Virus record (IMG/VR): IMGVR_UViG_643348551_000010
Strand: one strand, 5' to 3'
Origin: a virus
Taxonomy: Duplodnaviria; Heunggongvirae; Uroviricota; Caudoviricetes
Length of the DNA stretch: 36,896 nucleotides
Below are positions 16,573-36,896 of this stretch, one piece after another. The notes beneath the pieces were generated by a model. That model saw nothing but the letters and a program-made list of their open reading frames with translations, did not search any database and was not told the origin of the DNA. Within the stretch, counting starts at the first letter, position 1. Every line of letters starts with the position of its first letter. The position numbers and the translations under genes were made by a program.

Positions 16573-17490
16573 TTACAGGTAGTCAGCAACAACCAGTTGC
16601 AGCTTACCCTTCATCTCGTTAGAGACGGTGGTATTGCCATCCGCGAACAGCTCACGGTTAAGCAGTTGCTCTGCGGATTTTTCCAGTCCGACCGGTACAA
16701 CGATATGCGTCGGCTTCAGGCCCAGCTTCTTACCGCCATCACCTTCAAAAGAACGCATCAGTTGCCAGCCCTTCCAGAGGTTATCCAGCGTCAGATCGCC
16801 TTTTACCGCGACAGCCATCTGCCAGAAGCCGTAACCGGCAGCACGGCGGGCGCTGGCACCAAACAGGAACTCGTTATCCATAAAAACGTGGTCGTCATCG
16901 ATACGGGTACGTGCGACCAGTTCCGGTTTGCGGCGCTCCTGGAAAATCAGCGGTTTGACTGCGCGGGAGCAGTCCAGCAGATAGAATGGCAGACCGCTGA
17001 AGCTGTCCTGCTCAACGATGTTGGAGGTATTAACTGCGCTGCCCGTGCCGTCCACATTCGGATATACCGGATGCTCCTTGTCGAAGAAGTTCTGACCGTC
17101 ATAGCAGGGCTGGGTAAAGCCATCTTTCAGAAGTTTAAAAATCAGCTCATCCGGCTGAACTGCCGCAGAACGGCCCATCTCCTGAAAAATCGGCGCATAA
17201 ATACCCAGATTGTCATCCTCGAAGTCATCACGGGAAATACCCACGGTGCCTTCAAACGTTTTATTAGCGATGGAGTAGCCATGCGCTTCCATTTGCTGAA
17301 TGGTTCGCTTACCCACCCATTCTTTCAGGGTCGGGAATTTACCCAGCCAGCCATAGGTATTGCTGCGGGTGGAGGAGTTCACCACCATTGCAATTTTGCT
17401 GTACTGCGACGGGGCGTCTTCAAGACCGCCCTGAAAATCCTTACGCCAGGAGGTCATCAGAGCTTTAATGGATGCCGGGGTGACAATCAT
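16573..17490 (-). CDS. T: Major capsid protein
   Basis: 305 aa immediately downstream of the protease/scaffold gene and followed by a hairpin. Confidence 0.85.
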   Translation of the reverse strand: MIVTPASIKALMTSWRKDFQGGLEDAPSQYSKIAMVVNSSTRSNTYGWLGKFPTLKEWVGKRTIQQMEAHGYSIANKTFEGTVGISRDDFEDDNLGIYAPIFQEMGRSAAVQPDELIFKLLKDGFTQPCYDGQNFFDKEHPVYPNVDGTGSAVNTSNIVEQDSFSGLPFYLLDCSRAVKPLIFQERRKPELVARTRIDDDHVFMDNEFLFGASARRAAGYGFWQMAVAVKGDLTLDNLWKGWQLMRSFEGDGGKKLGLKPTHIVVPVGLEKSAEQLLNRELFADGNTTVSNEMKGKLQLVVADYL

Positions 17491-18587
17491 TTTTCTTGTT
17501 CCTGTTTCATTTTCAGATACTCAGCCTCAGTAATGCCGAGCGCCTTCACTGCTGCTTTTTCATCAGCAGACAGCACCGCCACCGCCGGTTTTTCCTGCGA
17601 CGGGTTTTGTACCGTTGTGGTCTGCATGGCAGATAACGCAGCGATGGGCTGTTTTTTCTCAAGCTGTGCCGACAGTGCCGCCACGCCAATCTGACCGCCA
17701 AGCTGTTCCAGATAGGCACGTTCGCTTTTGAAAATGCGGCCTTCCTGTTCCGCCTTGTCCAGAACGGCGCTCAGGCTGGCGGTGGCACTTTGCGCGGTGG
17801 CCTGAGCCAGTTCATCAAGCACGGCGTTGTAGCTTTCCACCGGGACGTATTTCGTCAGGTCAACGGCGGCTTTCTGTGCCTTTTCCAGTTCGGCGGATAA
17901 CGACGCCACTTTTCCGGCATCTGTTTCGAGTGCATCAAGCGCACTCAGGGCCGCGCTGGCCTGTTCATCAGTGATGTCTGCATTTTCGGGGACAGTTACC
18001 CCAAGACGCGCAAGCAGCTTGCGCAGCGTTTCATTCATGGGTTTGTTCTCCTGTTGAAGGATGTCGGGAAGGCCTGCCGCCAGTGCGGTCAGCTTTTTCA
18101 TGCCGGTGGCACCGGGATCATTGGTCAGCGCAGCAAGGCGGATTTGCAGTACCGCACCAGTGGCGGTGTCATACGGAAAAACCGCAGAGAGATAACCAAA
18201 TTCACCGTCATCGATGCGCTGCTGGGCTGCCGCTGTCCAGCGTGGGTGGATAAATAACCCTTCACCTTCACGCCACTGCATTTCATCGGCGTTAAACCAG
18301 CCAGCCGCGACCAGTTGTTCCGGGGGTAATCCTTTGTCCTTACGCAGCTGGTTATGCTCGTAATCAATCAGCACGTCCTGGTTAAGTGCGCGGATACCTT
18401 CAATCAGGCGTCCGGCAATTTCTCCGTCGATGAACCAGCCCTGACCGGTTGTTACATCAAACGGGCGACCGTCACGGGCACTGAAATAACCGGCAGGCAA
18501 TAGCTGGCACCAGCCGTCATCGTCAATGGACAGCGCACCCAGCGCAGCAATACCAATCGCGTGTTTTTTCATGTCCGGCCTGCTCAT
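17487..18587 (-). CDS. I: Head maturation protease with in-frame C-terminal scaffold (I/Z-type)
   Basis: 366 aa, ATG at 18585-18587, overlaps the capsid gene start by 4 nt. Confidence 0.8.
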   Translation of the reverse strand: MSRPDMKKHAIGIAALGALSIDDDGWCQLLPAGYFSARDGRPFDVTTGQGWFIDGEIAGRLIEGIRALNQDVLIDYEHNQLRKDKGLPPEQLVAAGWFNADEMQWREGEGLFIHPRWTAAAQQRIDDGEFGYLSAVFPYDTATGAVLQIRLAALTNDPGATGMKKLTALAAGLPDILQQENKPMNETLRKLLARLGVTVPENADITDEQASAALSALDALETDAGKVASLSAELEKAQKAAVDLTKYVPVESYNAVLDELAQATAQSATASLSAVLDKAEQEGRIFKSERAYLEQLGGQIGVAALSAQLEKKQPIAALSAMQTTTVQNPSQEKPAVAVLSADEKAAVKALGITEAEYLKMKQEQEK

Positions 18588-18773
18588 CGTGATTTGTGAG
18601 TAGCCAGTGTGCGGGGAACGGGAGAAAAGGCGGGGTTATCCAGTTTTAGTAATTCTGCAGGAGAAAGATAAAGGGGAAGGGAAATGCATGACGCTACCCC
18701 CTTCAAAACCCCTTCAAAAACGCCACAGAACCTTCAAAAATTCTTTATCGCGTGATTTTATCTCTGTATCTGG
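18588..18773 (-). promoter_or_regulatory. G-I intergenic region at the genome centre: expected site of the late promoter for I and candidate strong gyrase site
   Basis: 186-nt non-coding gap about 17.8-17.95 kb from the left end; three phased copies of ccttcaaaa at 18700-18708, 18711-18719 and 18731-18739. Confidence 0.5.
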
Positions 18774-19244
18774 TTACTGCGTCAGAGCGGCGCTTACGCG
18801 TTTTCTGATGGCATCATAAATTTCCTGCTCACCGCTCTTATCCAGCCCCATATAAGGACGTGCAGGAACACCTGCCGGACCGGGGGGCATATCAGGCTTA
18901 CCGCCCCACTGATGAATAGCAGCGTAAACTTTTGGTGAGCCAATCAGGGCATAATCCGGGCCGTAAGCGGAAGTGATGCTGCGGGCCAGATCGCCATGCA
19001 GGGTAAGAATGCTACCCGGAATAAAACCATGCTCCTGACGCCATGCCAGCCACGGGTCACTCCATGACTCCCAGCTCTGGCCCGTGTCCGGGTCTGCCTG
19101 CCGTTCAAAAGCCTGTTCAGAAGACGACAGCAATGCCGCAGCCATCACACGTGGCACATATCCGTCATGCGTTACCGTTGCCAGATCATCAAGAGCAAGC
19201 CGGATACGTCGCACATCCACGGCAACGTTCATATCAAGACTCAC
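18774..19244 (-). CDS. G: Virion morphogenesis protein G
   Basis: 156 aa; GTG at 19242-19244 preceded by a strong SD (ggaggtg), coupled to the stop of the upstream gene. Confidence 0.75.
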   Translation of the reverse strand: MSLDMNVAVDVRRIRLALDDLATVTHDGYVPRVMAAALLSSSEQAFERQADPDTGQSWESWSDPWLAWRQEHGFIPGSILTLHGDLARSITSAYGPDYALIGSPKVYAAIHQWGGKPDMPPGPAGVPARPYMGLDKSGEQEIYDAIRKRVSAALTQ

Positions 19245-22079: not shown

Positions 22080-23734
22080 TACCAGCCCCCTCGTTCAAAC
22101 TGGTGATAATCATCAAAATCATCGTTATCAACATCATCACCACGGTGGCGTGGTGGCAGCGCCTGTATGCTGTCCTCGTCGATAACAAAACCATTCATAT
22201 AAGACGCCCTGACAGCCATACAGAGCGCCACGGCAAAGTCGCCATGTCGTCGGCCTTTACCGCCTTCATCTTTTGTGCGCCCCTTATCAATCTGCGGAAT
22301 ACCTTTGTCCACCTTGATGTGGAGCAGGTCATCAAGTGTGGTCTGGTGCCGGGCAATCGTGATGTTCTGCGCTTCAAACTCGCCTTTCAGTTTTGGCATC
22401 CACTCCTGATACCAGGATGCGGTCAGATTCACACAGTCGATCATCTCCGGGCCATAAATCAGACGGGCGGCTTCTGCCAGATAACCGCCGTTACCGGTGG
22501 CATCAAATGCAGCGCCGGTAAAACGGGGCAAACGGGACAGAATGAATAAAAGGATTTGTCGCTGCTGGTCATAGGTCACATTACGCAGCTCCACGCGGAA
22601 ACATTCGCGTTTGCGTAAGTCTGGAGTGATGGCAAGCGGCACAAACACCGTCAGGTCGCCACGGCGTGCAAAGTCTTCGCCCAGTACGTGTTTATTGAGC
22701 GGTGACAGCGCATCGAGCAACGGGAGCAGCTCCTGTTCACACCAGTCCTGAACGATACCGTGGCGCATCTGCGGTGTCAGCGATTCAAAATCGTCCGGGG
22801 CTTCAAAACGCAGAACCGGGATATCCCGCGCGGGTGTCATGGCAGCTTCAATCAGGACACGGGACAGGTAAGCGCCACCGGATTTTTTGGGAATACAGCC
22901 GTATTCCTCGTCGGCGCTCTCTTTGTTCGGCGCGTTCCGGTACAGGCCATCACGCCAGGCTTTCTCCGCTTCCGGTGACCACGGCTGATTCGTAACATAA
23001 CAGATACGCCGGTACAGCCCGTCAGCGATGGCATCGTCCAGCGTGATACGGTGAACGCTGTAATCCTTGCGCCCCTCGCGTGCATCCTGAATGTACTGGT
23101 TAAACAGGTTATCGACGCCGTTATGTGTCGATATGATCCGCACGCGGGCACCCCACATGGTGAGCGCAAAGGCCGCTTTCAGGAGTTCGTCCAGGGCTTC
23201 ATGAAATGCCGCTTCATCAATCACCACATCCCCCTGTAAACCACGCAGGTTAGACGGGCGGCTTGAAAGCGCCTGCACCTTAAATCCACTATTCGGAAAG
23301 CGGATCATGTAGGTGAGGATTTCTTCTTTTTTGTCGCTGTCCCAGAAGGTCTGCTCCCAGACGTCAGCCTTTGCCAGCTGGTTAAAGGCGCGGGCAAACA
23401 GGGCACAGGCGGCGATGTATTCCAGCGCCATTTCCTGACGGGAACCCACATAAAAGACGTTGCGACCACCACGGCGACGCGGCTTTGCGGCCGTCATGAC
23501 ATTGCGGCCCGCTTCGGCCCATGTCAGACCGGTACGACGGGATTTTTCAGCAATGCAAATCTGGCTTTCATCCTCAAACCAGCGGCGCTGATAGCCCAGA
23601 AAAACCGGTTCATTGCGGGGCTGTGCTTCCCCGATATCGGTCACGATATTCACGCCAAGCAGTTCGGCTTCCTTACGCAGGTCGATTTTGCGGGGCGCAT
23701 GAAGGGCTTTAAGTTTGCTTTCTTTGGTGCTCAC
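22079..23734 (-). CDS. Terminase large subunit; annotated start is a GTG without obvious SD
   Basis: 551-aa ORF immediately upstream of portal; size and position typical. Confidence 0.85.
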   Translation of the reverse strand: MSTKESKLKALHAPRKIDLRKEAELLGVNIVTDIGEAQPRNEPVFLGYQRRWFEDESQICIAEKSRRTGLTWAEAGRNVMTAAKPRRRGGRNVFYVGSRQEMALEYIAACALFARAFNQLAKADVWEQTFWDSDKKEEILTYMIRFPNSGFKVQALSSRPSNLRGLQGDVVIDEAAFHEALDELLKAAFALTMWGARVRIISTHNGVDNLFNQYIQDAREGRKDYSVHRITLDDAIADGLYRRICYVTNQPWSPEAEKAWRDGLYRNAPNKESADEEYGCIPKKSGGAYLSRVLIEAAMTPARDIPVLRFEAPDDFESLTPQMRHGIVQDWCEQELLPLLDALSPLNKHVLGEDFARRGDLTVFVPLAITPDLRKRECFRVELRNVTYDQQRQILLFILSRLPRFTGAAFDATGNGGYLAEAARLIYGPEMIDCVNLTASWYQEWMPKLKGEFEAQNITIARHQTTLDDLLHIKVDKGIPQIDKGRTKDEGGKGRRHGDFAVALCMAVRASYMNGFVIDEDSIQALPPRHRGDDVDNDDFDDYHQFERGGW

Positions 23735-23788
23735 AGGTGAAAAATCCGGTATAAATTTTCAGGCTTTAATCAGTAAAAAGAGGTTGCT

Positions 23789-23974
23789 ATGAAAGAAAAG
23801 CTGACCATTGACCAAAAAATTGAGATTGCAAAAATAGCAAGTGACTTTGTTATCGCTGGCATGAATACGAATAAACAGCCAGCGTGTCTTGCCGGTTCTG
23901 ATCAAAATGTGAAGTCAGAACGGGAGTTGTTAAAACATATTTATCAGTTGCTGGAGGCAATGATTACTGATTAA
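23789..23974 (+). CDS. Hypothetical 61-aa protein encoded antisense to the late operon
   Basis: ATG at 23789 with SD aagagg 5 nt upstream; occupies a 229-nt gap lacking any minus-strand ORF; ends convergently, 11-nt overlap with the 64-aa gene. Confidence 0.4.
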   Translation: MKEKLTIDQKIEIAKIASDFVIAGMNTNKQPACLAGSDQNVKSERELLKHIYQLLEAMITD

Positions 23975-24158
23975 TTTGTGACTCTCTGATGATCTGGCCC
24001 GCGATACGCGGGCCAACCACAATCTGCATTAACAGATACAGTGATTCGGCTTTTGTGACGATATGAATATTGCCCTCCTCAGCCAGCGCCGCTTCGACGA
24101 TGGGTTTGAGTTTCAGGGCAATTTCCGCAGACGTTTTTTCTTTGGTTTCAACAGCCAT
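23964..24158 (-). CDS. Small protein with hydrophobic C-terminal segment (possible membrane tether)
   Basis: 64 aa from ATG 24156-24158 with strong SD (aaggaga), coupled to the upstream gene stop at 24172-24174. Confidence 0.6.
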   Translation of the reverse strand: MAVETKEKTSAEIALKLKPIVEAALAEEGNIHIVTKAESLYLLMQIVVGPRIAGQIIRESQINQ

Positions 24159-24171
24159 TACATTTTCTCCT

Positions 24172-24750
24172 TTACGCTTTCCCCAGCAGCACATCACGGA
24201 TACGCTGCTCCAGTTCTTCGCTGATGCCATCCTGCCCGCGCAGTTCTTCGCTGACAGCGTTTGCCGCTTCTTCTGCGAATGCCTGGCGGATCTCTTTCTC
24301 GCGCCGGTGGCTGGACATTGCTGTGGATTCCAGACGCTGTGCCGCCAGCATGGCGTTTTTCAGCAGTTCAATATCCACGTCATCTTCCGGTTTTTCGATT
24401 TGCCGCATCATGGCTTTAAAAAGCTGGCTGCGGGCCATTTCCAGAATCAGCTTTGTGGTTTCCCCCATTGGCTTGTCGCCAAGTTCTGCGGTCAGTGCTG
24501 ACGTCATTTCACGCATCTGTCGCAGGTTATGGCCTACCTGTTCGACGTTTGTCGCGTAACGGTTCAGGCCGGAACGGGAGAGTTTCATGTCATCAGGCAG
24601 TCCGGCATCTTCAATCAGGGCGTTAATTTCTTCCAGAATGCGGGCCTGTGGGATTGCCTTGTCACGCAGCATTTCATGCAGTGTTTTGCGCACGTTTTCC
24701 GGCAGCAAATCCACTTTTGAAGCCCGTCCCCGTGTTTTCCTGTCCATCAT
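24172..24750 (-). CDS. DNA-packaging protein, candidate terminase small subunit (tentative)
   Basis: 192 aa, charged helical protein positioned upstream of the terminase large subunit. Confidence 0.55.
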   Translation of the reverse strand: MMDRKTRGRASKVDLLPENVRKTLHEMLRDKAIPQARILEEINALIEDAGLPDDMKLSRSGLNRYATNVEQVGHNLRQMREMTSALTAELGDKPMGETTKLILEMARSQLFKAMMRQIEKPEDDVDIELLKNAMLAAQRLESTAMSSHRREKEIRQAFAEEAANAVSEELRGQDGISEELEQRIRDVLLGKA

Positions 24751-25049: not shown

Positions 25050-25345
25050 TTGTTGTTCTCTCCGAGCGCCTTTTCGAGCAAAAGCTCCAGTTGATGGGTC
25101 AGCACCTGTATGTGCCGGTTCATCGCTTTCACTTCACCATTGGTTTCTGCGGTTTGTAACCGGACAGCATGTAAATCCTGTGCACTGGGCATGTTTTCGC
25201 ACTTCGTTTCAAGCGCGGTTAAACGGCTTTCGATTTGCTCCACACGTTCCGTACTGGCAAATGTACGCCTCACCGCCCACCACAAAATGCCACCAATGGT
25301 GCTGCCACTGCCTATCGAGTAGGTCAGCACTGAATAAATATCCAC
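25046..25345 (-). CDS. Lysis accessory membrane protein (N-terminal TM helix plus coiled coil; spanin- or releasin-like)
   Basis: 99 aa, GTG start at 25343-25345 just after the lys stop; hydrophobic N-terminus followed by heptad-like region. Confidence 0.55.
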   Translation of the reverse strand: MDIYSVLTYSIGSGSTIGGILWWAVRRTFASTERVEQIESRLTALETKCENMPSAQDLHAVRLQTAETNGEVKAMNRHIQVLTHQLELLLEKALGENNK

Positions 25346-25357
25346 ACGCTCTCCTGT

Positions 25358-25786
25358 TTACAGCCCTGACGACATACCCGGCATTAATCCCGGCACCGGT
25401 AACACATCATCATTCAGCAGCTGATTATTACGGGGAGCGGGCACAGCACCAGAACCGGCGCTGAACATAAACACCGCCAGTGCATTTTTTTGCTCCTCTG
25501 TCAGTGGCCTGTTCAGATGGGTATTTAACGTGTCATAAACAGGCTTCAAATCTGCTTTCAACAGCATGATGCATTCACCATAGCTGTAAGGGCGTTGCTG
25601 AATATCAGGACCGTGATGGTTAAGGCAAACAGTCAGTTCGCCGTGCTGATCTGTGTATGGAAGGTACTGAACAGAAGCCAGCGATGAATCACCATCGCCG
25701 GACAACTGCCAGCCACCACATGCCGCCAGTACCACGATGGCAAGCGTTCTGATGATGCGGGGGAGACGTTTTTTAAAATCGTTCAT
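25358..25786 (-). CDS. lys: Endolysin with signal-anchor / lipobox-like N-terminus (lysozyme-like core)
   Basis: 142 aa, ATG 25784-25786 with AGGAGG SD; N-terminus MNDFKKRLPRIIRTLAIVVLAACGG; core motif LTVCLNHHGPDI resembles lysozyme-like endolysins; first gene after C, as in Mu. Confidence 0.65.
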   Translation of the reverse strand: MNDFKKRLPRIIRTLAIVVLAACGGWQLSGDGDSSLASVQYLPYTDQHGELTVCLNHHGPDIQQRPYSYGECIMLLKADLKPVYDTLNTHLNRPLTEEQKNALAVFMFSAGSGAVPAPRNNQLLNDDVLPVPGLMPGMSSGL

Positions 25787-25858
25787 GAAACCCTCCTTCG
25801 GTAATAAAAGGAGGGTAACTCAGGGGAATTTGCAGACGGGGTTATTATTAATTAACAC

Positions 25859-25876
25859 AACCGGCCTGCACCGGTT
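25859..25876 (-). terminator. Stem-loop just downstream of C (candidate end of middle transcript)
   Basis: aaccgg / cctgca / ccggtt hairpin 13-30 nt after the C stop, followed by AT-rich sequence. Confidence 0.35.
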
Positions 25877-25888
25877 GATTGCTGTTAC

Positions 25889-26299
25889 TCAGAATAAATC
25901 GGGCTGATGTCGCCGTGAATGAAGTTTTCTCTGCCGGGCAATAATCTTGTAAATCTGCGGTTGTGACAGACGATGTTCACGCCGCAGCTCCTCTATGTTC
26001 CGACCGTTAAACTGGCAGTAAATCAGATCATCCCGCAACGCTGCCAGAAGTGCATCACCCCGGGGGATGTAATACTGCCGCCCCCCCAGGAACCATGATA
26101 AGGACATCACCTGTTTACGGGCTATGCTCCGTGCATCATCCACGCCCTGACGTTTCAGTTCTGTTTCCAGAACGTCAACCAGCTCAACCAGCGCGCGGGG
26201 CCAGCGGGCCTCCTGCTCAGGAGCCGGTATATTGTCGATATGATCCATTAACTGGCTTACAGCCGGATCATGTTCAAATAAATCCTGCTGATTTGTCAT
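25889..26299 (-). CDS. C: Late transcription activator C (Mor/C family)
   Basis: 136 aa; shares the C-terminal motif FNGRN..EL with the mor product at 27659-28048; located immediately upstream of the lysis genes. Confidence 0.85.
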   Translation of the reverse strand: MTNQQDLFEHDPAVSQLMDHIDNIPAPEQEARWPRALVELVDVLETELKRQGVDDARSIARKQVMSLSWFLGGRQYYIPRGDALLAALRDDLIYCQFNGRNIEELRREHRLSQPQIYKIIARQRKLHSRRHQPDLF

Positions 26300-27023: not shown

Positions 27024-27576
27024 GCAGAACCTCCCGGCAGGCGCTGGCGAGCAGATCCAGACGGTTAAACCAGCCGTTCAGATATTTCCCCTGCGAGGCA
27101 CTGGATTTGATAATCCCTGCGTAATAGCGGGAACGACGCAGGAAACACTGCAACAGCAGCCAGTCAGTATCGGCACGCAGTACGGCTGCGCGAGTGTTTT
27201 TGCCGACGATGCCATCATCATCAACACCTGCTGCCGCCTGGAGGATTTGAATTGCGCGTTTAACACCGTGCTGAACGGCAGCATCAAAGACGAATAAGGA
27301 AACACCATCAGGCCATTCGTTACACTTTGCCGCCAGCCAGTAATCACGCCAGTAGATTTGCGCCGCCTGCTCGTGGGTTAAATCTTTAATACGGGTATCA
27401 GGCTTCCCGTCACCGTTAACATCGGTTTTGCCATCAATAACGCCGTCGCGACGGTCAGAAATGCCGTATTTGGTTTCGCCGCCACGGTCAGTGGGATCAT
27501 TAACGTAACCACCTTCAACATCAGGCCGTATAACAAAATTCAGCGAATGAAGGAATGCAGGGGAAAACTCAGGCAT
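27016..27576 (-). CDS. GH108-family peptidoglycan hydrolase-like protein (predicted muramidase with C-terminal PG-binding-like region)
   Basis: Motif EGGYVNDPTDRGGETKYGI typical of the GH108 N-terminal domain; start set at ATG 27574-27576 with SD aggaggg (the track start at 27609 is a GTG). Confidence 0.7.
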   Translation of the reverse strand: MPEFSPAFLHSLNFVIRPDVEGGYVNDPTDRGGETKYGISDRRDGVIDGKTDVNGDGKPDTRIKDLTHEQAAQIYWRDYWLAAKCNEWPDGVSLFVFDAAVQHGVKRAIQILQAAAGVDDDGIVGKNTRAAVLRADTDWLLLQCFLRRSRYYAGIIKSSASQGKYLNGWFNRLDLLASACREVLHG

Positions 27577-27632
27577 GTTGCCCTCCTGTAATGAACGTTT
27601 TATCGTCACAACAGAATATTGAGGGCGTAAAA

Positions 27633-28048: not shown

Positions 28049-28611
28049 TGTGCCAGTCTCCGTGTTTTTCTTGCACGGGCATAAGCTGCTGTCATGGCAT
28101 CATAGCCACGCAGTTCACGCCCGGACGGGCTGACCGGCAACGGGAGCCCATAATGGGAAAAGGCTTCACGGATACAGCGGATGTGCCACTGTTTCAGGGT
28201 TTCAAGCACAATTTGTAACGATTCTCCGTGACACCACGCCAGCGTGGAAACACCCTGTCCGCCATTACGTCTGGCTGTCAGTCGTTCGACGTATTTATCC
28301 AGTGCTGTATCACTGCCATCGGCAATAAAACCGTCTTCTGCCATTTGCTGCCAGATTTTTAATACCTTTTCGTGGGGCGTTACATGCCCATTAAAGCGAC
28401 GGCGTGGGTGTTTATTCTGCTTCTTAAAACCGCGTTCTTTCATGGCATCGAGCACCAGCTCCAGTTGCGCGACGGTCAGCTCACGGCAACTGATTTTGCC
28501 CGTGTTCTGCATCAGAAAGGCACGGTAGGTGTCGTCGTCGAGTTGTAGCTCCCGACGGGCGACATGGATTAATTTAATAAGCGATGTGCGATTCACTTGC
28601 TCACCTCTCAT
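28045..28611 (-). CDS. gemA: GemA (host gene expression modulation protein)
   Basis: 188 aa from ATG 28609-28611 (MRGEQVNRTS...); immediately upstream of mor, as in Mu. Confidence 0.8.
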   Translation of the reverse strand: MRGEQVNRTSLIKLIHVARRELQLDDDTYRAFLMQNTGKISCRELTVAQLELVLDAMKERGFKKQNKHPRRRFNGHVTPHEKVLKIWQQMAEDGFIADGSDTALDKYVERLTARRNGGQGVSTLAWCHGESLQIVLETLKQWHIRCIREAFSHYGLPLPVSPSGRELRGYDAMTAAYARARKTRRLAQ

Positions 28612-28626
28612 ATTAAGGAATGAGAT

Positions 28627-29043
28627 ATGAAAATTGATTATGACGAGATAGCCAGAATATTTGATGTATTCCTGGAGGCCGACACTGCATTCATTCGACT
28701 GGAAGATGTCGGCTGGGATCGTTCTCAGCGGCACAGCGACAGCCATCAGAAGCTGGTTTTCCATCTTCTGTTGCTGGTTGAAAATGGTTTTATCAGCAAC
28801 AGATATCTGGAAACAGGCACCGCAAAAAGCATTGGTCTCACCCCGACAAGCCTCGGATATTCATATTCAGGCACCAGTGTCAGACTCACACAAGATGGTC
28901 ATGATTTTGCGAAAGCACTACATCAAAAACCCATTCTTGAGCGTATAAAACAGGAGCTTGCCGACGCCCCGATGACGCTCGTAACAGACGTCGGCAAACA
29001 GTGGTTAACCTCGTTTCTTAAAAAGAAACTCGGGATTGAATAG
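28627..29043 (+). CDS. Hypothetical 138-aa protein encoded opposite to the early operon (candidate prophage-expressed accessory gene)
   Basis: ATG 28627 with SD aagga 7 nt upstream; fills a 393-nt interval with no minus-strand ORF; start codon only 15 nt from the divergent gemA start; 3' end converges on the next early gene. Confidence 0.6.
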   Translation: MKIDYDEIARIFDVFLEADTAFIRLEDVGWDRSQRHSDSHQKLVFHLLLLVENGFISNRYLETGTAKSIGLTPTSLGYSYSGTSVRLTQDGHDFAKALHQKPILERIKQELADAPMTLVTDVGKQWLTSFLKKKLGIE

Positions 29044-29316
29044 TTCCCGGTTCATACGTTGCAGCACATCAAGGGCGGCGACAGCCGCCACTTTATCGTT
29101 GCCATCAGCAATAGTGCGGAGATTTTCAATAATCCAGTGAGGACTCAGTGACTCAGCAACAATGCCCAGTCGGTACGCCATGACCTCATCAATAGCCTGT
29201 TCGTAAGACGGGGCATATACAAAGGCCACAAAGTCGTTGACCTCGTTTTCCGGTAAACCACCGGCAATCAGCAGGGCTGTAAGTTCTTCTGATTTTGTAA
29301 ATACGCCATTATTCAT
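29005..29316 (-). CDS. Small early protein (Mu gp15-position, tentative)
   Basis: 103 aa from ATG 29314-29316, coupled to the stop of the upstream gene at 29309-29311. Confidence 0.55.
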   Translation of the reverse strand: MNNGVFTKSEELTALLIAGGLPENEVNDFVAFVYAPSYEQAIDEVMAYRLGIVAESLSPHWIIENLRTIADGNDKVAAVAALDVLQRMNRELFNPEFLFKKRG

Positions 29317-29467
29317 TCTGTTCACCTTCACAATTCATGCACGCCGTGTCATCGCCCATATCGCAGTGGTTGCATTTCTGTCCGCCACAATGGGGACACT
29401 CTTTCAGATATTCAGGTGCTTCATTACCGCAGGTCGGGCATTCCTGCTTTTCGTTTACGTTATTCAT
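29309..29467 (-). CDS. Small Cys-rich zinc-ribbon protein; start could be further upstream (to 29521)
   Basis: CPTCGN...CPHCGG...CNHC...CMNC pattern; ATG 29465-29467 coupled to the upstream stop. Confidence 0.55.
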   Translation of the reverse strand: MNNVNEKQECPTCGNEAPEYLKECPHCGGQKCNHCDMGDDTACMNCEGEQNE

Positions 29468-29642
29468 TTCGTAATACTTCCTCGCAATAAAAAATCTCAT
29501 TGGGATAACGTTTTTGTACATGTTCCATCACCTGCCTGCATATCTGCTCCGTGGGCCAGATTCTTTCCGTTACAGGTATGGCATCGCAGGCATCATTCCC
29601 GCAGGTGCTAACCAGCAGGACAAAGCCAATTGACTTAATCAC
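29460..29642 (-). CDS. Small early protein (60 aa)
   Basis: GTG 29640-29642 preceded by strong SD (ggagg, 6-nt spacer); no in-frame ATG upstream. Confidence 0.5.
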   Translation of the reverse strand: MIKSIGFVLLVSTCGNDACDAIPVTERIWPTEQICRQVMEHVQKRYPNEIFYCEEVLRNE

Positions 29643-29871
29643 TATTTGCCTCCATATGTTCCAGACGCTGTGCTTCGCGCATACACATCTGCGCAATCAT
29701 CATCTGGCGGGCAATGCCTGCACGAATAAACGAAGCTGCACGACGGAGATTTTTTGCATTCGCCTGTTGAATCAATGCAGGTACTGATGCCAGGCATTCG
29801 GCGCTGTCTTTAATCAACACCTCCGCTGTTATTTCCGGTGCTTGTTGCTTATTCCTCGTCATCTTCGTCAT
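29635..29871 (-). CDS. Small early protein (78 aa)
   Basis: ATG 29869-29871; ORF packed between neighbouring early genes. Confidence 0.5.
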   Translation of the reverse strand: MTKMTRNKQQAPEITAEVLIKDSAECLASVPALIQQANAKNLRRAASFIRAGIARQMMIAQMCMREAQRLEHMEANSD

Positions 29872-30157
29872 CCTTTACATTCAGCGTTACAGGAAATTTT
29901 TCGAATATGAAAAGGGCAAGCCTTGCCCCAAGTCTCAGAAGGTTTGCTTCCTTTGAATGTGCAGGGATAACACATTTCTCACCGTCATTGTCGAAGGTAA
30001 TATCCGCATCTTTTTTATCGATAAAAAAACGACATTCATCCACGCGTGCTTTATGCCATGCACATAAAGAGACAATGCATTCTTTCATTTCCTGATTCGT
30101 CATAAATATCACCATTTCAGATTCAGGCGCGAGCAATTCCCTGACGCATCGCGCCAT
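29849..30157 (-). CDS. Small early protein with strongly acidic C-terminal tail (DDEDDEE); start uncertain
   Basis: 102-aa ORF directly downstream of gam; alternative ATGs at 30115 and 30103. Confidence 0.5.
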   Translation of the reverse strand: MARCVRELLAPESEMVIFMTNQEMKECIVSLCAWHKARVDECRFFIDKKDADITFDNDGEKCVIPAHSKEANLLRLGARLALFIFEKFPVTLNVKDDEDDEE

Positions 30158-31461: not shown

Positions 31462-31481
31462 TGTCAGCGTTCCTTTGTGAA

Positions 31482-31751
31482 TTAATGTCTGGCTGCATTT
31501 GGGTTATAGCTGAATAGTTCCCCCTCAGCTTCCAGCCCAAGCTCCCTGGCTGATTTCAACAACTCCTCGGTCGCTTTTTTAATGATTTCAGGAGCCATAC
31601 TCTTGATGATGCCTGCCATTACGTCATGTGGCCCGGTCTGGTCCTCAGGTGAGGATTCTTCCAGTCGCACATTCATATTTACGGCAAAACCTCCATTTTC
31701 CTGAAACTCAATATTTTCTGTATTGTTAAACTCAAAGATTACTTTTGCCAT
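31482..31751 (-). CDS. Hypothetical early protein (89 aa); start uncertain
   Basis: ATG 31749-31751 placed just after the stop of the upstream gene; the track ORF extends to 31889 overlapping that gene. Confidence 0.45.
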   Translation of the reverse strand: MAKVIFEFNNTENIEFQENGGFAVNMNVRLEESSPEDQTGPHDVMAGIIKSMAPEIIKKATEELLKSARELGLEAEGELFSYNPNAARH

Positions 31752-31764
31752 TTTTATTGCCTGC

Positions 31765-31977
31765 TTATTGATTAACGGGCGTTGCATTTGTGATTTCGTT
31801 AAGTTCACAAAACACATTTTCTGCGTGATGATGGTTGCCGACATGAACAGCCAGTTTTCGACCATCAACAAATTCAAAAATAACATCACCGTTAACAGTT
31901 GATTCCATTACACTGACATTATCAAGGTTAATTAACCGACCAATTCCCAGACTATCGTGAATATTTATCACCATCAT
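31765..31977 (-). CDS. Hypothetical early protein (70 aa)
   Basis: ATG with ggaga SD 9 nt upstream; directly downstream of kil. Confidence 0.5.
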   Translation of the reverse strand: MMVINIHDSLGIGRLINLDNVSVMESTVNGDVIFEFVDGRKLAVHVGNHHHAENVFCELNEITNATPVNQ

Positions 31978-31984
31978 TTAAATG

Positions 31985-32212
31985 CTATCTCCAAATTATC
32001 TGACAACCATTAAATCGGGCCGTCCATACTGAACGGGCAATCCCTGATTTATGCTCCATAATTCTGATGGCGCTCCTGACCAGCTCCGGTGGTGGGCAGG
32101 TAATCTCAAGAATCGGGCGTGCAACACCGAGATATGACTCATTAACGTGGCTACCGCGTGCCTGTAACCATGTCTTTACTTCCGTTGCCATTTTGATATT
32201 CCGTGACATCAT
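31985..32212 (-). CDS. kil: Kil-like host-killing / cell-division inhibition protein (assignment by position)
   Basis: 75 aa from the tandem ATG at 32210-32212; first gene downstream of B, as in Mu. Confidence 0.6.
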
Positions 32213-33202: not shown

Positions 33203-35200
33203 TTAAATGGCTTTTTTACGTCTGTTCTGTTCCAGAATATCCAGCGAATGATTCAGATATTCATCACGCTCAGTTTCGTATTCATCATCACGCTCCTGAT
33301 TCTTCACTCGTTCCGTATTACCGGAAGGCCGGAAAATGCCGACAATTTGTGATTCTGGTGCTTCAGGTTCGGCTATCTGCGGCAGCAGCTCTGCCACTTC
33401 CAGTGCATCCATTTGTTTCTGTGCCTTAATCGCTGCTTTCGTAGCAGATTTCAGTTGTTTCTGGCGGCGGCGATATTCACGGCCTGCCGCAGCATCATTA
33501 AACGCAACAGGTGCCAGACATTCCGCTTCACAGATAAACCGACCGTCAAGGGTGTAGCAATAAACCGTGCTGTGTAACTGCTGTGGATCAAATCTGACCA
33601 CAACTTTTTTTACTCCGGCATTCATTAACGCCATGTTGTAATAAACGTTTTTCGCACCTTTAAGGGAGCCACCAACTTTAAGCGCGAACTCGCCTTTACG
33701 TGAAACGTTCACTGCCTCGGCAGGCAGTAACAGCATCCGTTTTTGCTCTTCGGTAGGCTTACGCACAATCGTTCTGGCGTATTCACGCTCAAAAACGTCA
33801 TCAAACGAAAGTTTGCCTCCGCACATTTCTGTTTCACGGCCTGTTCTGGCATTGAACATCGCCACACCTTCGGCAAGGGTTTTCAGAAACAGCTCTGCAT
33901 CAACAGCGCGGTCGCCATAGTTATCAGGTTTTGCCTGCGGATTAGGCCCCGTATATGCGCCAGCCAGTGCCGGATGCTTATCAACGTATTCCTCAAGCCC
34001 ACCAACACCGAAAGCACGTTCAACAGGTTTTGCCTGGCCCCAGCCTTTACCGGCAACAACGCTTGTCCAGTGCATTTTCGCCCCCATCAGTAAAAACAGT
34101 CCTTTTGGATCGTCCTCTTTTACCTTAAAGCGGTAGCGATTGGGCGCGCCTCCCGTCAGCCATTTATTCGCAGCACCACGGGTGTTATCAATGGTGATGT
34201 GAAAATCCTCCGGGATACCGTAGCGAGTCACAACATCCATGAACGAGAGGCGAATTGAATCAATGTTCTCGCTCACATCGCAGCGCCAGCCCAGAATTTT
34301 TCGGGTTTTCACATCCTGCCAGAACCATGTTTTCGGACGGATCACATCACCGTTAAACCAGCGTACAAAGACGTTATGCAGATAACCGTCGCCGTTGATC
34401 CACTGCATGGCGTCCAGGTGTTCCACAGTTCGCTGCTGTGCCGGTATCAGATGCATCAGTGCATGTTCACCTTCACGGCAGGCAACAACCATTGCCTCGT
34501 CCAGTTGCTGAATCCGGCGAAAGGCCGTGGCACGGGAGGGAATACTCCAGCCATGCTCGCGGGCTGCCAGTTCCAGACGCTCATAACATTTGCGGAAGGC
34601 GGGTTTTTCCGGTCGCAGATAATCTGCAATCAGAAACTGCCAGGCATCCTCGTCAAATTCACTTTTGTGAACGTTGCGACGGGATGCACCACGTCCATCA
34701 ACAAGCGCAGCCGCCCAGTCAGGCTTCGCAAACTTCTGTACCTGGTAATACTTGTCCCGCAAAGTGGATGCGCTGACCTGGTAATGCCCTGCAACGGTCG
34801 CAAAAGCCGTTTTTGTTGAAATCCCCTGGTTCAGCATTTCGTCTGCAGCCTGAACCGCAGGCAACCATTTTTCAGCAAGTCTGCGCTGGGAATCGCTGGC
34901 GTTATCCCATTTGCTCCACAGTGCCTCACGATCATAATCATGGGCTTCCAGCGTGGGGCGGGCGATTTCAAAATACCCCTGGCTTGTTTCTATTTGCTCA
35001 GATTTTAATAACAACTCAGCACGTGCTGCCGCTGGTAGAACTGATATATGAAATTCCAAAGCCTTTGAACCCGTACGCTTGCGACGTAGTTCTGGATGAT
35101 TGGCTGCAAGCTTTTCAAGATTGCGGCGAATACTCACCTCATGTTTAGGAAAGCATGACATTCCTACGCATTCTTGCGCTGTTACCCAATGGGTTAACAT
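33203..35200 (-). CDS. A: DDE transposase A (MuA family); N-terminal DNA-binding domain appears divergent from canonical Mu (D108-like)
   Basis: 665 aa from ATG 35198-35200 (MLTHWV...), overlapping the ner stop; the track start at 35230 is a TTG. Confidence 0.95.
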
Positions 35201-35421
35201 GATGTTTTCTCCATATACCGAGAAGGCCAAATCTGGGCTGGTTCCATATCCAAATATCTAGCAATGATTGCTTCGTATCGTGGTATATGGCAGCGAAATA
35301 CGTTACGCATAGTGTCAGGCTTTAAGCCTGCCTCTCTGGATAATTGAGATAGTGTCTTCCCCTTCATACGAACAGCAGCCTTTATCTGCTCTGCGTGCCA
35401 GTCTTGGTTTTTTGCTGACAT
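35194..35421 (-). CDS. ner: Ner-like early transcriptional regulator (DNA-binding)
   Basis: 75 aa from ATG 35419-35421 with aagga SD; conserved DWH motif; sequence appears to differ from canonical Mu Ner, as expected for a D108-like immunity type. Confidence 0.85.
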
Positions 35422-35590
35422 TCTGCGATCCTTACTCACTTAACGTTTTCGGTAACTGATACCGGCTACCGCTATCGGGAAAAACGATAGCGCAGAAAAA
35501 TGCGCATTTCAAGAGCTGTGCGCATTTTTATTTTAACAAATGCAAATCAAAGCATTCTGTAAAATTTTTTATATAACAGAGAGATTTAAC
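35422..35590. promoter_or_regulatory. Divergent early / repressor promoter-operator region between ner and c
   Basis: Perfect 8-bp inverted repeat cgctatcg-N7-cgatagcg at 35470-35492; direct repeats TGCGCATTT at 35501-35509 and 35519-35527; AT-rich tatata upstream of c. Confidence 0.6.
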
Positions 35591-36199
35591 ATGACAGGCG
35601 AAAAAGAAAGCAAAAATGCAGAGCGCATTTTTATGCCCTCGGAAATAATGCGTTTCAAGGAACGCCTTGAAGAGGCAATGAATGGAGAATCAAGCCGGGC
35701 GTTTGCAGCTAAGTGCGGACTTTCTGATGGGGTTATCAGAAACTACCTGTCTGGCAAGACATACCCGTCTTTAGATCGATTAGCACAAATAGCCTACGCA
35801 ACAGGGCGTCCAATAGAGTGGTTTATCCAAAGTCAGAGCATGCCAATGGTTGAGCATAAAAATGCTCGAGAGAATAAAAATCCTCAACCTGACCGCAGCA
35901 CATTGAAAACTAAACTGATCGCAATTGTCGAATTGTTAGAGGACAAGGAACTGCATTCTGCGATTGAGTTGTTCAGAAAGAAAGGATTTGAAGCTCTTAT
36001 GCCTGAGATTTTTTCTTCCGATGATTCCATCCAGGCTGATTTGCAAGGTATTTCGCAGCAAACCTTACAAACAGCCAAAATGCTTGAATCATTACCAACA
36101 GATACCCGTAAAGAGATTTTGTCAAAGTATGGTATTTATGAACAGGAATGTCTTGTAGCTCCTTCACAAGAACCACAAGATGTAAAAAAAGCCGTATAA
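35591..36199 (+). CDS. c: Prophage repressor c (lysogeny maintenance); N-terminal DNA-binding domain appears to differ from Mu c (from memory)
   Basis: Only long leftward gene at the phage left end; C-terminus ...SKYGIYEQECLVAPSQEPQDVKKAV resembles the Mu repressor C-terminus; start set at ATG 35591, alternative at 35540. Confidence 0.85.
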   Translation: MTGEKESKNAERIFMPSEIMRFKERLEEAMNGESSRAFAAKCGLSDGVIRNYLSGKTYPSLDRLAQIAYATGRPIEWFIQSQSMPMVEHKNARENKNPQPDRSTLKTKLIAIVELLEDKELHSAIELFRKKGFEALMPEIFSSDDSIQADLQGISQQTLQTAKMLESLPTDTRKEILSKYGIYEQECLVAPSQEPQDVKKAV

Positions 36200-36365: not shown

Positions 36366-36537
36366 TTTTCGTATTTTCAATGAAACAAAAGCAATTTTTT
36401 ACTATCTTTCGCGTTTCATTGATTAACGACTAAAATTTGCGCTACAGGCTTGCAAGCCCCACCAAATCTAATCCCATCAGATCCCGAATAATCCAATGTC
36501 CTCCCGGTTTTTTTCGTACTTCAAGTGAATCAATACA
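36366..36537. repeat. Phage left end (attL) with three transposase-binding sites L1-L3
   Basis: Matches to the MuA end-site consensus at 36511-36532, 36406-36427 and 36366-36387 (TTTTCG...TGAA..CA type on this strand); terminus caataca at 36531-36537. Confidence 0.8.
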
Positions 36538-36896
36538 ATCGGGATCACCAATGGAAGCTCTTTATAGCCCGCATCAAGATGGTTTTGCATTGCCGCAATG
36601 GAATAACGCATCATGCGAAAAGCCATTAATTCTTCCGGCTTACTTTGGTGCTCTATCACTACATAAATATAACCCACTCCCTCCTGCGTTTTCACAGACC
36701 ACAAGAGGTCGGAATAATATTGCCGCAGGTCGTCATCAATAAAACTGTTTGGTTCCAGTTTAAGCGTCGTTAAATCACACAGTTTGCGCAGCGGCGCGGG
36801 AAGATGAATATCAATAAAATCCCGCGCGGTGTCTGGATGGCGTAAAAAAGATTTAAATACCGCATCATGCGGCGTGGAAGTTGTCGATATTGTCAT
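36538..36896 (-). pseudogene. Host rpn-family (YhgA-like, PD-(D/E)XK recombination-promoting nuclease) gene, 5' portion only, disrupted by prophage insertion
   Basis: ORF starts [33 protein letters not shown]...IEHQS (Rpn-like N-terminus), reads for about 119 codons, then continues 20 codons into the phage end before stopping at 36477. Confidence 0.7.

Follow-up and report, generated by a model that had tools for sequence, protein, structure and literature searches.

In phage Mu, the strong gyrase site (SGS) has three parts, namely a left arm that is dispensable, a core, and a right arm that is essential (PMC6463007, PMC10052514, PMC13284261). The right arm contains phased bending signals, is protected by gyrase from DNase digestion between +26 and +85, and has an essential first 40 nt (PMC6463007); its deletion abolishes SGS activity (PMC10052514; PMC13284261). 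In the cryoEM structure of E. coli gyrase on the Mu SGS, the right arm is wrapped around one GyrA C-terminal domain (CTD), with the AT repeats directed toward the CTD and the GC repeats directed outward (Michalczyk et al. 2024, PMC11626157). At the cut site itself, the +3 A and -3 T positions have been named, and the GC steps at +/-7-8 serve as bend points (PMC6463007). The gyrase sites mapped genome-wide in E. coli by Topo-seq share a degenerate 130-bp motif, in which a core is flanked by two arms of ~47 bp that alternate between G/C and A/T with a period of ~10.5 bp (Sutormin et al. 2019, PMC6379681). Related sites also occur in other prophages. According to the account of Oram and Pato (2004) given in PMC10052514, Mu-like prophages of E. 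coli O157 Sakai, H. influenzae, S. Typhi, and N. meningitidis have central sites beside the head genes that are cleaved by E. coli gyrase, and only one in five Mu-like prophage sites, the E. coli one, is a good substitute for the Mu SGS. Homology is therefore no guarantee of strength.

The window, which is the whole stretch of 36,896 nucleotides analysed here, is, judged from its sequence, a Mu-like prophage of E. coli in reverse orientation. It is 92–95% identical to Mu across most of its length. The left end of Mu corresponds to position 36537, and the window starts ~115 bp inside the right end of the phage. The last 359 bases (36538–36896) are identical (100%) to E. coli rpnB in many genomes, and the prophage is thus inserted in rpnB. 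Several segments have no blastn match to Mu, namely 23733–24176, 25098–25891, 27024–27611, 28595–29307, 29449–30122, 31476–31986, and 34993–36080. They lie in the early and semi-early region and include the stretch equivalent to the Mu repressor and early operator region (Mu ~458–1529). The prophage is probably heteroimmune to Mu.

The repeats described here lie in the gap between genes G and I, where all genes are on the - strand. The preliminary description had given this gap as 18588–18773, and its right edge stands. Its left edge followed the longest open reading frame (ORF) of gene I, which has 366 aa (MSRPDMKKH...) and begins at an upstream in-frame ATG at 18587 that arises from a one-nucleotide difference from Mu. 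The start homologous to that annotated in Mu is the ATG at 18572 (MKKHAIG...), and the true gap is probably 18573–18773. Gene G and the gap together (18590–19220) form a diverged patch of 52–90% identity to Mu within structural surroundings of 95–100%; identity is 70–90% in G and 52–60% over 18770–18620. This pattern points to a recombination patch. The closest relative found for the patch is a prophage of E. coli TUM9757 (97.5%), and, of 5426 complete E. coli genomes, TUM9757 and PEC422 alone have the gap variant of the window. The gap also holds small ORFs, including a 40-aa ORF with a TTG start (18584–18706, - strand), and a 'gene 31.5' is annotated in the gap of D108. These ORFs are unsupported as genes, because indels are present and identity to Mu is 50–60% here. 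The 8-nt sequence CGTGATTT occurs as a direct repeat, just upstream of I (18588–18595) and at the predicted gyrase cut (18751–18758), probably by chance. Rfam covariance models gave no match up to E = 1 on either strand of 18450–18900.

The motif CCTTCAAAA occurs on the + strand at 18700–18708, 18711–18719, and 18731–18739, with start-to-start spacings of 11 and 20, as the preliminary description had reported. The whole window contains five copies on both strands against 0.51 expected (maximum of three in 100 shuffles), and three of the five are located within 40 bp. The other two are single copies in the gin-homologous region (1351–1359, - strand) and in the major head gene (16742–16750, + strand), and are probably unrelated. 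A repeat finder gives the unit as 11 nt: tandem copies of CCCCTTCAAAA at 18698–18708 and 18709–18719 are 100% identical, and a third unit, AACCTTCAAAA, at 18729–18739 has 82% identity. Since the genes are on the - strand, transcription runs through the units as TTTTGAAGG(GG). Every unit contains a tract of four or five A, with the T-tract on the coding (-) strand. The A/T-versus-G/C Fourier power of the 56-nt block at 10–11 bp was reached by 598 of 20000 shuffles and belongs to the top 7% of all 56-nt windows in the sequence, which is unremarkable, and the middle helical turn of the block is without an A/T tract. What is non-random is the recurrence of the motif together with its conservation, not periodicity alone. 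The repeats look like phased bending signals, as the preliminary description had suggested, and the plain periodicity is too weak to count as evidence.

Features of the gap were placed by pairwise alignment with the annotated Mu record, which gives the end of G at 17859, the gyrase cut site at 17879/80, a terminator predicted by TransTermHP at 17908–17953, the late promoter PI at 17977–18043, and the start of I at 18056. In the window, these correspond to 18774 (G end), 18754/18753 (cut), 18725–18679 (terminator), 18655–18586 (PI), and 18572 (I start). The preliminary description had recognised the region as the counterpart of the Mu gap that holds PI and the SGS, and both now have positions mapped from the Mu record. 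It had also held that the sequence could not decide to which of the two the repeats belong. The alignment with the mapped gyrase site and PI, which it had proposed as a check, puts the repeats 15–54 nt to the right of the cut, in the right arm of the SGS, with PI ~60 nt beyond. Because PI maps away from the repeats, they are on the gyrase-site side of the gap. Mu, D108, and a Yersinia Muvirus have TTTTAAAACG, TTTTAAACCG, and ATTTAACGG at the three repeat positions with the identical 20 + 11 spacing. The resulting coordinates are collected in Table 1.

Table 1. Features in and around the G–I gap of the window; offsets are counted from the predicted gyrase cut.
Feature	Position	Strand	Basis
Gene G (virion morphogenesis / neck protein, 156 aa)	18774..19244	-	ORF list; aligns with Mu G 17389–17859
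Gene G stop codon TAA	18774–18776	-	Upstream neighbour of the gap
Conserved core ATAAAATCA, predicted gyrase cleavage site	18753..18761	-	Mu cut site maps here by alignment
Three-repeat 47-bp putative right-arm block AATTTTTGAAGGTTCTGTGGCGTTTTTGAAGGGGTTTTGAAGGGGGT	18696..18742	-	Positional homology to Mu right-arm units
Repeat 1, TTTTGAAGG	18731..18739	-	+15 to +23; aligns with Mu TTTTAAAACG
Repeat 2, TTTTGAAGGGG	18709..18719	-	+35 to +45; aligns with Mu TTTTAAACCGG
Repeat 3, TTTTGAAGGGG	18698..18708	-	+46 to +56; aligns with Mu ATTTAACGGTG
Possible intrinsic terminator downstream of G	18662..18716	-	RNA fold, -19.4 kcal/mol
Counterpart of the Mu C-dependent late promoter PI	18586..18655	-	Maps from Mu 17977–18043
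Gene I (head protease/scaffold)	17487..18587	-	Longest ORF; 94% aa identity to Mu I

The predicted cut on the - strand falls between 18754 and 18753, inside a conserved ATAAAATC^A, with a 4-nt stagger (AATC) at 18754–18757. The 9 nt around the annotated cut are identical to Mu, including the +3 A and the -3 T. At +/-7-8, the GC steps are changed in part, with +7G and +8A in place of GC on the top strand and no GC on the bottom strand. With the Mu left end placed at 36537 and the window ~115 bp short of the right end, the cut lies ~48.5% of the way along the prophage, counted from the left end; the value for Mu is 48.7%. In a transposable Mu-like genome, the locus is thus near the middle and within the gap that precedes head protease gene I. 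It also has a phased A/T–G/C right arm, whose three T-tract/G-run units from +15 to +56 align with those of Mu unit for unit.

The register of the site was also scanned with a G/C-versus-A/T template taken from the printed 133-bp Topo-seq consensus, which is a crude proxy for the published matrix. In Mu, used as positive control, the template fits best near the SGS in a register 1 nt off the mapped cut, which ranks 29 of 73170. In the window, the best centre is 18756.5, also 1 nt from the predicted cut, and ranks 11 (+ strand) and 17 (- strand) of 73528. The register relative to the repeats is the same as in Mu and the score is slightly higher. The contributions within the window have p values of 0.02 for the left arm, 0.05 for the core, and 0.003 for the right arm. 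The scan is supportive of a gyrase site but crude, because the positive control was not ranked first.

Across Mu-like phages, no other non-coding element of the region is as well conserved as the three-unit block. Upstream of I homologues, it is present with spacings of 20–21 and 11 in Erwinia, Xenorhabdus, an Enterobacteriaceae, Vibrio, and Rodentibacter, and a search with a block profile adds prophages of Alishewanella, Rheinheimera, Alkalimonas, and Halomonas. It recurs at the centre of the head genes with a semi-conserved spacer (for instance TTAAACGCGCCACGGCGTTTTTAAACGGGGTTTAAAGGGGG in Erwinia), and the non-coding DNA around it cannot be aligned between genera or lineages. In the preliminary description, gyrase and promoter sites aligning elsewhere in the gap, with repeats unconserved among Mu-like phages, had been named as the outcome that would count against the idea; the conservation of the block contradicts this outcome. 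The distance between block and I is not conserved, since the block of the Alishewanella/Rheinheimera group is 0.8–1.7 kb upstream of I with other DNA between, whereas in lineage C, described below, it ends ~25 nt before the start codon. The units of one block need not match each other, as hybrid blocks demonstrate: an Enterobacteriaceae locus (L006) has TTTAAACGCC, TTTTGAAGGGGG, and TTTAAATGC, and Erwinia has ...AAACGGGG and TTTAAAGGGGG. In L006, the first right-arm unit and the core also form a perfect 11-bp inverted repeat, GGCGTTTAAAATCATTTAAACGCC (2315–2340), with a strongly significant fold (z = -3.3). The gap is different in a Mu-like insert of an O157 Stx2c phage (L098), where the units are TTTTCTAAC, TATTTAACGGG, and CTTTAAAAT and the template score is poor.

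The 45-bp version of the block found in the window is 96–98% identical in two distant Mu-like lineages whose DNA cannot otherwise be aligned with it. When 551 bp were compared by megablast with the 5426 E. coli genomes, 47 records matched only window 18695–18740, at 95–98%. These block-only records belong to lineage B, a different Mu-like prophage that is complete (repressor, transposase A, B, Gam, Mor, com, and mom) and inserted in aaeB. Its block lies between an F-like minor head protein gene and the protease gene, at 46% of the 34.3-kb prophage; the block flanks are unrelated to those of the window and the protease is 31% identical to the I protein of the window. The label 'Sakai Sp18 prophage' was considered for this lineage and rejected, because the Sakai genome is absent among the 48 genomes carrying it. 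Lineage C (L087, L097) has only the block in common with the window, directly upstream of a protease–major head gene pair. The matches to the 45-bp block are L004 4001–4045, L005 4001–4044, L087, and L097 3240–3290. The block of the window is thus ~60% identical to that of its close relative Mu but 96–98% identical to those of two distant lineages. Some E. coli genomes carry up to three such sites, and the 45-bp arm may have undergone either small-patch exchange between co-resident prophages or base-by-base selection.

An exact 20-mer of the block also occurs in a few non-Mu viral contigs (L081, L085, L091). In the GC-rich contig L091 (12563–12686, - strand), two clusters ~105 bp apart consist of four to six tandem 11-bp units, (C/T)TTGAAGGGG, just downstream of a toprim/primase-like ORF and a RecA-type helicase-like ORF. 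They look like origin iterons built from the 11-mer of the window. The match may be coincidental, because little information is contained in a tandem 11-mer when 2.9 million contigs are scanned. The other two occurrences are L085 1844–1863 and L081 3105–3124. One of these contigs is GC-rich and has the 20-mer in a gap beside a DUF935-type portal gene and an F-like gene in convergent orientation; the other is AT-rich and has it ~450 nt upstream of a 403-aa ORF.

One alternative function of the repeats is transcription termination. On the RNA, repeats 2 and 3 can use their G-runs to pair with UUCCCUUCCCC further downstream, which gives a possible hairpin with the 5' arm UGAAGGGG and AAGGGGG and the 3' arm UUCCCUUCCCCUUUA, an overlap that the preliminary description had missed. 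A U-rich tail, UUUAUCUUUCU, follows, although it is interrupted and partly in the stem. TransTermHP predicts a terminator at the homologous place in Mu, where the hairpin (-19.8 kcal/mol) is significant at z = -4.1, and several other lineages have a hairpin and/or a T-run at most 50 nt after the block. A terminator after G, perhaps borrowing the G-runs of repeats 2 and 3, is therefore plausible, but it does not explain the block itself. The hairpin of the window, with 15 pairs and a 5-nt bulge, is no better than shuffled sequence (z = -1.27; 23 of 200 shuffles fold equally well), and a simple promoter and terminator consensus scan of the gap called nothing. Repeat 1 is outside the hairpin. The Mu hairpin is made of different bases, with the homologous units in the loop rather than in the stem. 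Lineage B has the identical block and, after it, a separate clean terminator, GCCGGTAAATCCGGCTTTTTTT, so that the block is dispensable for termination there. The three-unit 20 + 11 conservation across genera is also left unexplained. That the repeats mainly build an intrinsic terminator ending the late lys-to-G transcript, with an incidental gyrase role, is accordingly unlikely. A part in the initiation of transcription fits less well still. Phased A-tracts upstream of promoters can boost transcription, and the I gene is preceded by the block in all three lineages with the block version of the window, so the repeats could in principle be an upstream element of PI, such as a bent-DNA or UP-like activator of I transcription. 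The 67-nt Mu PI maps away from them without overlap, however: its conserved box GATAACCCC, the counterpart of the ATAAC(C)CC common to Mu Plys, PI, PP, and Pmom, is at 18632–18640, ~60 nt downstream of the last repeat at 18698, and the probable hairpin lies between. Together with the variable distance from block to I described above, this makes a promoter element highly improbable.

A third alternative is that the block is an array of three sites on one helix face for some phage or host protein other than gyrase. The 45 bp are near-identical between lineages whose neighbouring proteins are 31% identical, and such near-exact conservation across hosts exceeds what a bendability code of a purely physical kind would appear to require. 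The two identical changes from the TTTAAACG type in all three units look concerted, and the same 11-mer forms the iteron-like arrays beside the primase/helicase-like genes of the unrelated contig L091. This last match may be the coincidence mentioned above, and the hybrid blocks of L006 and Erwinia indicate that units need not be alike. Searches of the G–I gap for IHF and Fis consensus sequences found nothing. The homologous Mu block is already explained by gyrase footprints, deletion data, and the cryoEM structure, and a further binder in place of gyrase appears even less likely than the terminator.

The repeats are most probably the proximal right arm of the central SGS of the prophage, in a variant sequence. 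This assignment draws on the homology of the block, in position and sequence, to the right arm mapped in the SGS of Mu, on its central position, on its separation from PI, and on its conservation. From the same comparison we infer that gyrase binds and cleaves at the predicted site and that the TTTTGAAGG variant functions like the TTTAAACG units of Mu. Host DNA gyrase would bind with its cleavage centre at ~18754–18757, and the DNA on its right, on the side toward which late transcription proceeds, would wrap around one GyrA CTD. The T/A tracts at ~+17, +38, and +49 from the centre would turn their minor grooves toward the protein, and the G-runs between them would face outward. Such wrapping could lock gyrase in a single register and make the distal DNA available as transfer segment. 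Supercoiling at the prophage centre, thereby efficient and processive, would then help the prophage ends to meet for replicative transposition. As a secondary and non-exclusive role, the G-runs of repeats 2 and 3 may provide the 5' half of a terminator hairpin closing the G transcript.

A more speculative extension, possible but on the doubtful side, is that the 45–47-bp block is a portable and sequence-constrained 'gyrase-wrapping cassette', and that the TTTTGAAGGGG version is a distinct and possibly stronger class of arm or is read by an additional factor. The block would then be kept nearly base for base, or move as a tiny patch, between transposable phages whose DNA cannot be aligned anywhere else. 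The genome-wide gyrase arm consensus is closer to the TTTTGAAGGGG version than to that of Mu.

The kind of element is already known, and the locus is modestly novel in its sequence variant of all three units and in the sharing of this variant among unrelated Mu-like lineages. The Mu SGS is a standard substrate in work on gyrase mechanism and structure, and the right arm is what makes it special. A natural allele in which all three units are changed from TTTAAACG to TTTTGAAGG with the spacing kept, and whose exact sequence occurs in three unrelated E. coli Mu-like lineages, is a ready comparison set for the question of whether gyrase reads the phase, the flexibility, or the exact sequence of the arm. 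The three-unit block (20–21 + 11) is also a simple marker for annotating SGSs in Mu-like prophages across Gammaproteobacteria. For the window, the ambiguity is settled in that the repeats are assigned to the gyrase site rather than to the late promoter.

Outside phages, a 10-bp nucleosome-positioning repeat, TATAAACGCC, was reportedly described by Widlund and co-workers in 1999 and by Roychoudhury and co-workers in 2000. The consensus of the block family, T(T/A)TAAACG(C/G)(C/G), with ATTTAAACGCC in L006 as an example, is presumably nearly the same motif, repeated in helical phase in both. Each of the two repeats would favour wrapping around a core of protein. The nucleosome repeat belongs to a eukaryotic histone context, and the variant of the window differs from it in having TGAAG for TAAAC.

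Compared with the Topo-seq motif through the G/C–A/T proxy, the T-runs of the window fall on the A/T peaks of the consensus at ~+19, +38.5, and +49, and the unit TTTTGAAGGGG resembles the consensus arm CCTTTAAGGGGGCCTTTTGG, whereas the A/T peak at +29.5 is absent in the window. The SGS-like sites of Oram and Pato differ in that the Sakai genome is absent among the genomes matching the block of the window. The closest counterpart is the Mu SGS itself. The window has units reading TTTTGAAGG(GG) where Mu has TTTAAA(A/C)CG, and its block is only ~60% identical to that of Mu although the genomes are 92–95% identical. The GC steps at +/-7-8 of the core also differ, and the units form the stem of the predicted hairpin in the window and its loop in Mu. 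In contrast to these differences, both sites lie in the G–I gap at the centre of the prophage and have the sequence ATAAAATC^A at the mapped (Mu) or predicted (window) cut. Both have three T/A-tract units with G/C-rich spacers at equal offsets from the cut, followed by a predicted hairpin and, further downstream, by PI.
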